Position numbers and translations under genes: made by a program | Shown: in pieces, positions 63,925 to 64,000 of the stretch | Layout: every line of letters starts with the position of its first letter | Position numbering within the stretch: the first letter of the stretch is position 1 | The notes under the pieces: model-generated | The model's input: the letters and a program-made list of their open reading frames with translations, nothing else | Databases searched by the model: none | What the model was told of the DNA's origin: nothing | Assembly: GCF_003334765.1 (NCBI RefSeq) | Contig: NZ_QOWT01000002.1 | DNA: 64,000 nt | Origin: Escherichia coli | GTDB taxonomy: Bacteria > Pseudomonadota > Gammaproteobacteria > Enterobacterales > Enterobacteriaceae | Strand: one strand, 5' to 3'

Positions 63925-64000
63925 CCATAAGCGCTAACTTAAGGGTTGTGGTATTACGCCTGATATGATTTAACGTGCCGATGAATTACTCTCACGATAA
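63925..64000 (+). mobile_element. IS186 left end (partial, runs off window)
   Basis: CATAAGCGCTAACTTAAGGGTTG terminal repeat region followed by transposase start. Confidence 0.6.
63981..64000 (+). CDS. insL: IS186 transposase InsL, first 6 codons (MNYSHD...)
   Basis: ATGAATTACTCTCACGATAA matches recalled InsL N-terminus; truncated by window end. Confidence 0.5.

Follow-up and report, generated by a model that had tools for sequence, protein, structure and literature searches.

The window, a 64,000-nucleotide stretch of Escherichia coli DNA, closes on the 3' end of one gene and the 5' end of another. The nucleoside permease gene nupC lies intact on the + strand at 62692..63894, with its stop codon at 63892-63894, as given both by the list of open reading frames and by RefSeq for the identical segment of K-12 strain MG1655 (L001 4293-5495, WP_000376337.1). 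From that stop codon, ...ctgTAA, the window continues in order with gaccatacataaaaaagccggggataattcc, CATAAGCGCTAACTTAAGGGTTG, tggtattacgcctgatatgatttaacgtgccg and ATGAATTACTCTCACGATAA, where it ends. Within this tail, AAAAAAGCCGGGGATAATTCCC at 63904..63926 is the left half of a split two-way terminator of nupC and pdeA; neither the 10-pair stem nor the T-run that the empty site has is left on this side. The left copy of a target-site duplication, GGGATAATTCCC, lies at 63915..63926 and measures at most 12 nt, a length that falls to 10-11 nt when the terminal C and G are given to the inverted repeats; the right copy falls outside the window. The left terminal inverted repeat of IS186, CATAAGCGCTAACTTAAGGGTTG, occupies 63926..63948 (+, 23 nt, exact), and a 32-nt leader at 63949..63980 (+), identical to that of IS186 in MG1655 and in E. 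coli VG48B2, carries the sequence on to the transposase start codon. The 5' end of insL, the IS186 transposase gene, fills 63981..64000 (+), where six codons and two further bases translate to MNYSHD before the window cuts the gene.

The window's final 75 bases, the left end of IS186, agree with IS186 copies at every position. Within the window, the 23-nt inverted repeat matches at one place, with 0 mismatches, and this remains the sole match even when up to three mismatches are allowed (0 expected by chance, from shuffles); the same sequence forms both ends of the K-12 element. Between the inverted repeat's first base and the insL ATG at 63981 the distance is 55 nt, a spacing found also in MG1655 and VG48B2, and the gene is oriented as nupC. 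A preliminary description, made from the window alone, had placed IS186 at the window edge after nupC and read MNYSHD as the N terminus of InsL. Both points hold: the inverted repeat matches exactly and at one place only, the sequence runs on into a full IS186 in genomes with an identical tail, and the peptide encoded at 63981-64000 opens a 370-aa transposase in those relatives. The start given there, 63925, was right to within one base, being one base too early; the first base of the element is 63926 or 63927, an ambiguity that arises because C63926 fits either the inverted repeat or the target duplication. The edge of the window thus falls inside a mobile element and is not a natural boundary. 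No further IS186 ends occur in the 64-kb window, and a consensus scan of the left end found neither a sigma-70-like promoter for insL nor an outward promoter. A 14-nt inverted repeat lies over the insL start codon, in which window 63973-63986 (L001 5574-5587) is 86% complementary to L001 5646-5659. Translational occlusion of insL by such a start-codon hairpin was considered and dropped, as L001 5550-5680 does not fold significantly better than shuffles (z-score -1.43; 21 of the 200 did as well).

The remainder of the element can be read in close relatives. The last 601 bases of the window (63400-64000) are 100% identical to K-12 strains including MG1655, across the nupC/IS junction, and identity to VG48B2 extends over the last 1600. 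These two genomes agree with each other over 2501 bp that take in the nupC 3' end, IS186 and the pdeA 3' end (L001 5000-7500, where L001 is the MG1655 stretch, L007 that of VG48B2, and a window coordinate equals the L001 coordinate plus 58399). In both, a complete IS186 of 1337-1339 bp continues past this junction, which supplies the extension and alignment to IS186, as well as the target-site duplication, that the preliminary description had proposed as checks. In MG1655, the 23-nt inverted repeats (L001 5527-5549 and 6843-6865) are perfectly complementary, the 12-nt direct repeat GGGATAATTCCC is found at L001 5516-5527 and 6865-6876, and the full insL reading frame (L001 5582-6694) encodes 370 aa. 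The element is given as 1337-1339 bp and the duplication as 10-12 bp because the terminal C and G are assignable to either inverted repeat or duplication. From these relatives we infer with confidence that the genome of the window also has the whole of IS186. Inside IS186, on the - strand and antisense to insL, a terminator-like hairpin at L001 6293-6312 (GCCGGAAAGGGAGCTCCGGC then TTTTTTATTA) is a consensus match only, and terminator-like sites around this region are no commoner than in shuffles; it could stop transcripts coming in from the right end of the element, here from pdeA.

The full InsL protein, taken from the MG1655 stretch, matches the Pfam family DDE_Tnp_1 (PF01609, E 3.6e-26) and the NCBIfam family transpos_IS4_1 (NF033592, 133.3 bits, above the cut-off of 115). 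It carries a YREK motif of the form Y-(2)-R-(3)-E-(6)-K, YRLRWQIELAFKRLK at residue 305, and this signature, placed beyond the catalytic E region, is defining for the IS4 family. All of the features that define IS186 and the IS4 family, where they could be tested, are present. Like IS186, IS10 and IS50, of Tn10 and Tn5, have the DDE_Tnp_1 domain and the YREK signature, are bounded by short terminal inverted repeats and duplicate ~9-12 bp of their target, whereas the target of IS186 is much stricter, palindromic and G/C-flanked. By analogy, IS186 is assumed to move by cut-and-paste DDE transposition through a hairpin intermediate.

We rebuilt the empty site by removing the element and one copy of the repeat. 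The result, AAAAAAGCCGGGGATAATTCCCCGGTTTTTTT, is a two-way terminator hairpin that separates nupC from the convergent pdeA; L004 1606-1637 shows it intact. For the empty site the predicted fold is a hairpin of 10 pairs (-17.2 kcal/mol) with seven T after it, and the terminator scan scores it as a terminator on both strands. When the site is occupied, each half is predicted to form a 4-pair hairpin (-7.0 kcal/mol on the left and -8.6 kcal/mol for the other), and the same scan finds no terminator-like site at either junction. IS186 begins 31-32 nt past the nupC stop codon, and in MG1655 the pdeA stop codon lies ~28 nt from the other end. Disruption of neighboring genes, which the preliminary description had thought could not be assessed from the window, is thus an answerable question: the coding sequences of nupC and pdeA are both intact, and only their common terminator is split. 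The pdeA-side flank has one promoter-like site on the minus strand, which the empty site carries too and which is no more than chance would give.

The target site, GCCGGGG-ATAATT-CCCCGG, is the N6 form of GGGG(N6/N7)CCCC, a pattern that 59 newly arisen IS186 insertions showed in a study of mutation-accumulation lines, which also reports a single site entered in both orientations (PMC5009759). The nupC/pdeA site is like these other insertions both in motif and, as described below, in being used in both orientations. No further GGGG(N6/7)CCCC sites occur in the 64-kb window, and we found no literature on IS186 together with nupC. In the preferred account, the stem-loop of this two-way intrinsic terminator received IS186, and its sequence, CCGGGG-ATAATT-CCCCGG, fits the GGGG(N6)CCCC preferred by the IS186 transposase. 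Staggered cleavage and repair duplicated the 10-12 bp of GGGATAATTCCC. The insertion converted the terminator hairpin to two weak halves and left the coding sequences untouched, and 3'-end formation of nupC or pdeA might be affected.

The IS186 between nupC and pdeA (yfeA) in MG1655 agrees with that in the window in its position and orientation, in inverted repeat and leader, and in start codon and target duplication, and we take this MG1655 copy to be IS186C, with insL3 (b2394). We therefore hold, with a probability of roughly 0.93, that the window ends 75 bases into an IS186 copy that matches the nupC-pdeA copy of MG1655 and is inserted in the common terminator. As such, the copy is already known, and there is nothing new in it. 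The lon promoter is a hot spot for IS186, known from earlier literature. An IS186/IS421 insertion next to lon (capR) has been described (PMC12844343), and menC and fimA were hot spots in mutation-accumulation lines (PMC5009759). In contrast to these sites, the target here is neither a promoter nor a coding sequence but a terminator that lies between convergent genes, and no gene is inactivated.

The modest addition made here is a population picture of a terminator doubling as an IS186 target. Among 5426 complete E. coli genomes, the empty site AAAAAAGCCGGGGATAATTCCCCGGTTTTTTT is contiguous and intact in 4441, IS186 is present in the window's orientation in 472 by the left junction and 474 by the right, and about 47 show other states of the site, among them ETEC4069 with IS200C and Stbl4 with IS2 in its IS186 copy. 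In strain 510016, the left and right junctions lie exactly one element apart. In a further 465 genomes, IS186 occupies this nupC/pdeA position the other way round, again with the same duplication. An example is E. coli EH10-18-47 (L002 2621-3958), whose element differs from that of K-12 by one mismatch and one gap, is annotated as frameshifted and sits between flanks 99.96-100% identical to K-12. Inversion between IS186 copies was rejected as the source of the opposite orientation, since this genome retains both the nupC and the pdeA flank with the same duplication, which argues for independent insertion. With 472 genomes in one orientation and 465 in the other, the nupC/pdeA terminator is a recurrent IS186 target, and the counts of empty, forward and reverse sites illustrate the strictness of IS186 for GGGG(N6)CCCC. 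The spacer is also used by a second type of insertion sequence, as ETEC4069 has IS200C just upstream of the intact terminator hairpin (L003 1790-2500). Orientation of IS186 at this site provides a simple marker for typing K-12-related strains.

Other readings of the site and of the element can be weighed against these data. One is that occupancy is more than neutral, the split terminator altering 3'-end formation or read-through between convergent nupC and pdeA, and that it is kept as a selected polymorphism or a reversible switch. The gene functions, nucleoside uptake for nupC and c-di-GMP phosphodiesterase for pdeA, are the background to this idea, and IS186 occupies the site in ~17% of complete genomes, in nearly equal orientations and on nearly identical flanking haplotypes; we regard selection of this kind as unlikely. 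A different concern is that only 75 of ~1338 bases are inside the window, such that IS186 in this genome might be a remnant with a truncated left end, a copy split by another insertion sequence, or one whose far side was swapped by recombination. Examples of the kind are at hand in Stbl4, which has IS2 inside the IS186 copy at this junction, and in the frameshifted reverse copy of EH10-18-47, and the 5-12 query-matching places in close relatives suggest several copies capable of recombination. However, the left and right junction counts are nearly equal, and the closest relatives examined, MG1655 and VG48B2, carry a complete and identical element, making an interrupted or rearranged copy very unlikely.

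That the 75 bases resemble IS186 by chance, or belong to another element with the same end, has a probability close to nil. The RefSeq product name at the window-identical K-12 site, "IS4-like element IS421 family transposase," could hint at a different element, and we found no other support; IS186/IS421 is, however, one name in the literature for the transposase encoded by insL (PMC2859166; PMC12844343). The identity of all 75 bases to IS186, shared with K-12 and VG48B2, and an inverted repeat that is unique in the window and has 0 matches in shuffles refute both versions of this reading. An IS186 copy in the nupC/pdeA terminator, as in MG1655, remains the preferred account of the window's end.

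The resemblance to MG1655 extends well beyond the junction, with 99.955% identity and 16 mismatches between the window at 25910-64000 and the MG1655 record, that is, 16 differing positions over 38 kb aligned. Farther upstream, window 1-7026 aligns to MG1655 10.4 kb out of register, and 7026-25910 has no K-12 counterpart. For the last 24 kb the best match is VG48B2, a farm-environment isolate, followed by swine, sheep, cattle, human and other isolates slightly ahead of K-12, and VG48B2 and the other top matches all run through the IS junction. Coverage of window 6000-27000 stays below 80% in every one of the 5426 complete genomes. This DNA is not that of K-12 itself, because it has a different, P22-like prophage remnant at argW, and it represents a K-12-like natural lineage.

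That remnant, of ~20 kb and unlike the one K-12 has there, follows the tRNA-Arg(CCT) gene argW at 5556-5630 (region 5556-25910). It includes an integrase (5756-6949), a tailspike (7833-10199), the anti-repressor Ant (10300-11178) and the sar antisense RNA (11180-11246; Rfam, 65.6 bits), and it also encodes ejection proteins, an O-like replication protein, a CI-like repressor and RecT. The ten open reading frames scanned included none for head, packaging or lysis functions. A 460-aa open reading frame on the - strand at 15493-16875 matches phage DNA primase over residues 2-228 and a P22-type DNA ejection protein over residues 230-458, and looks like a deletion scar that fused the replication region to the ejection genes.
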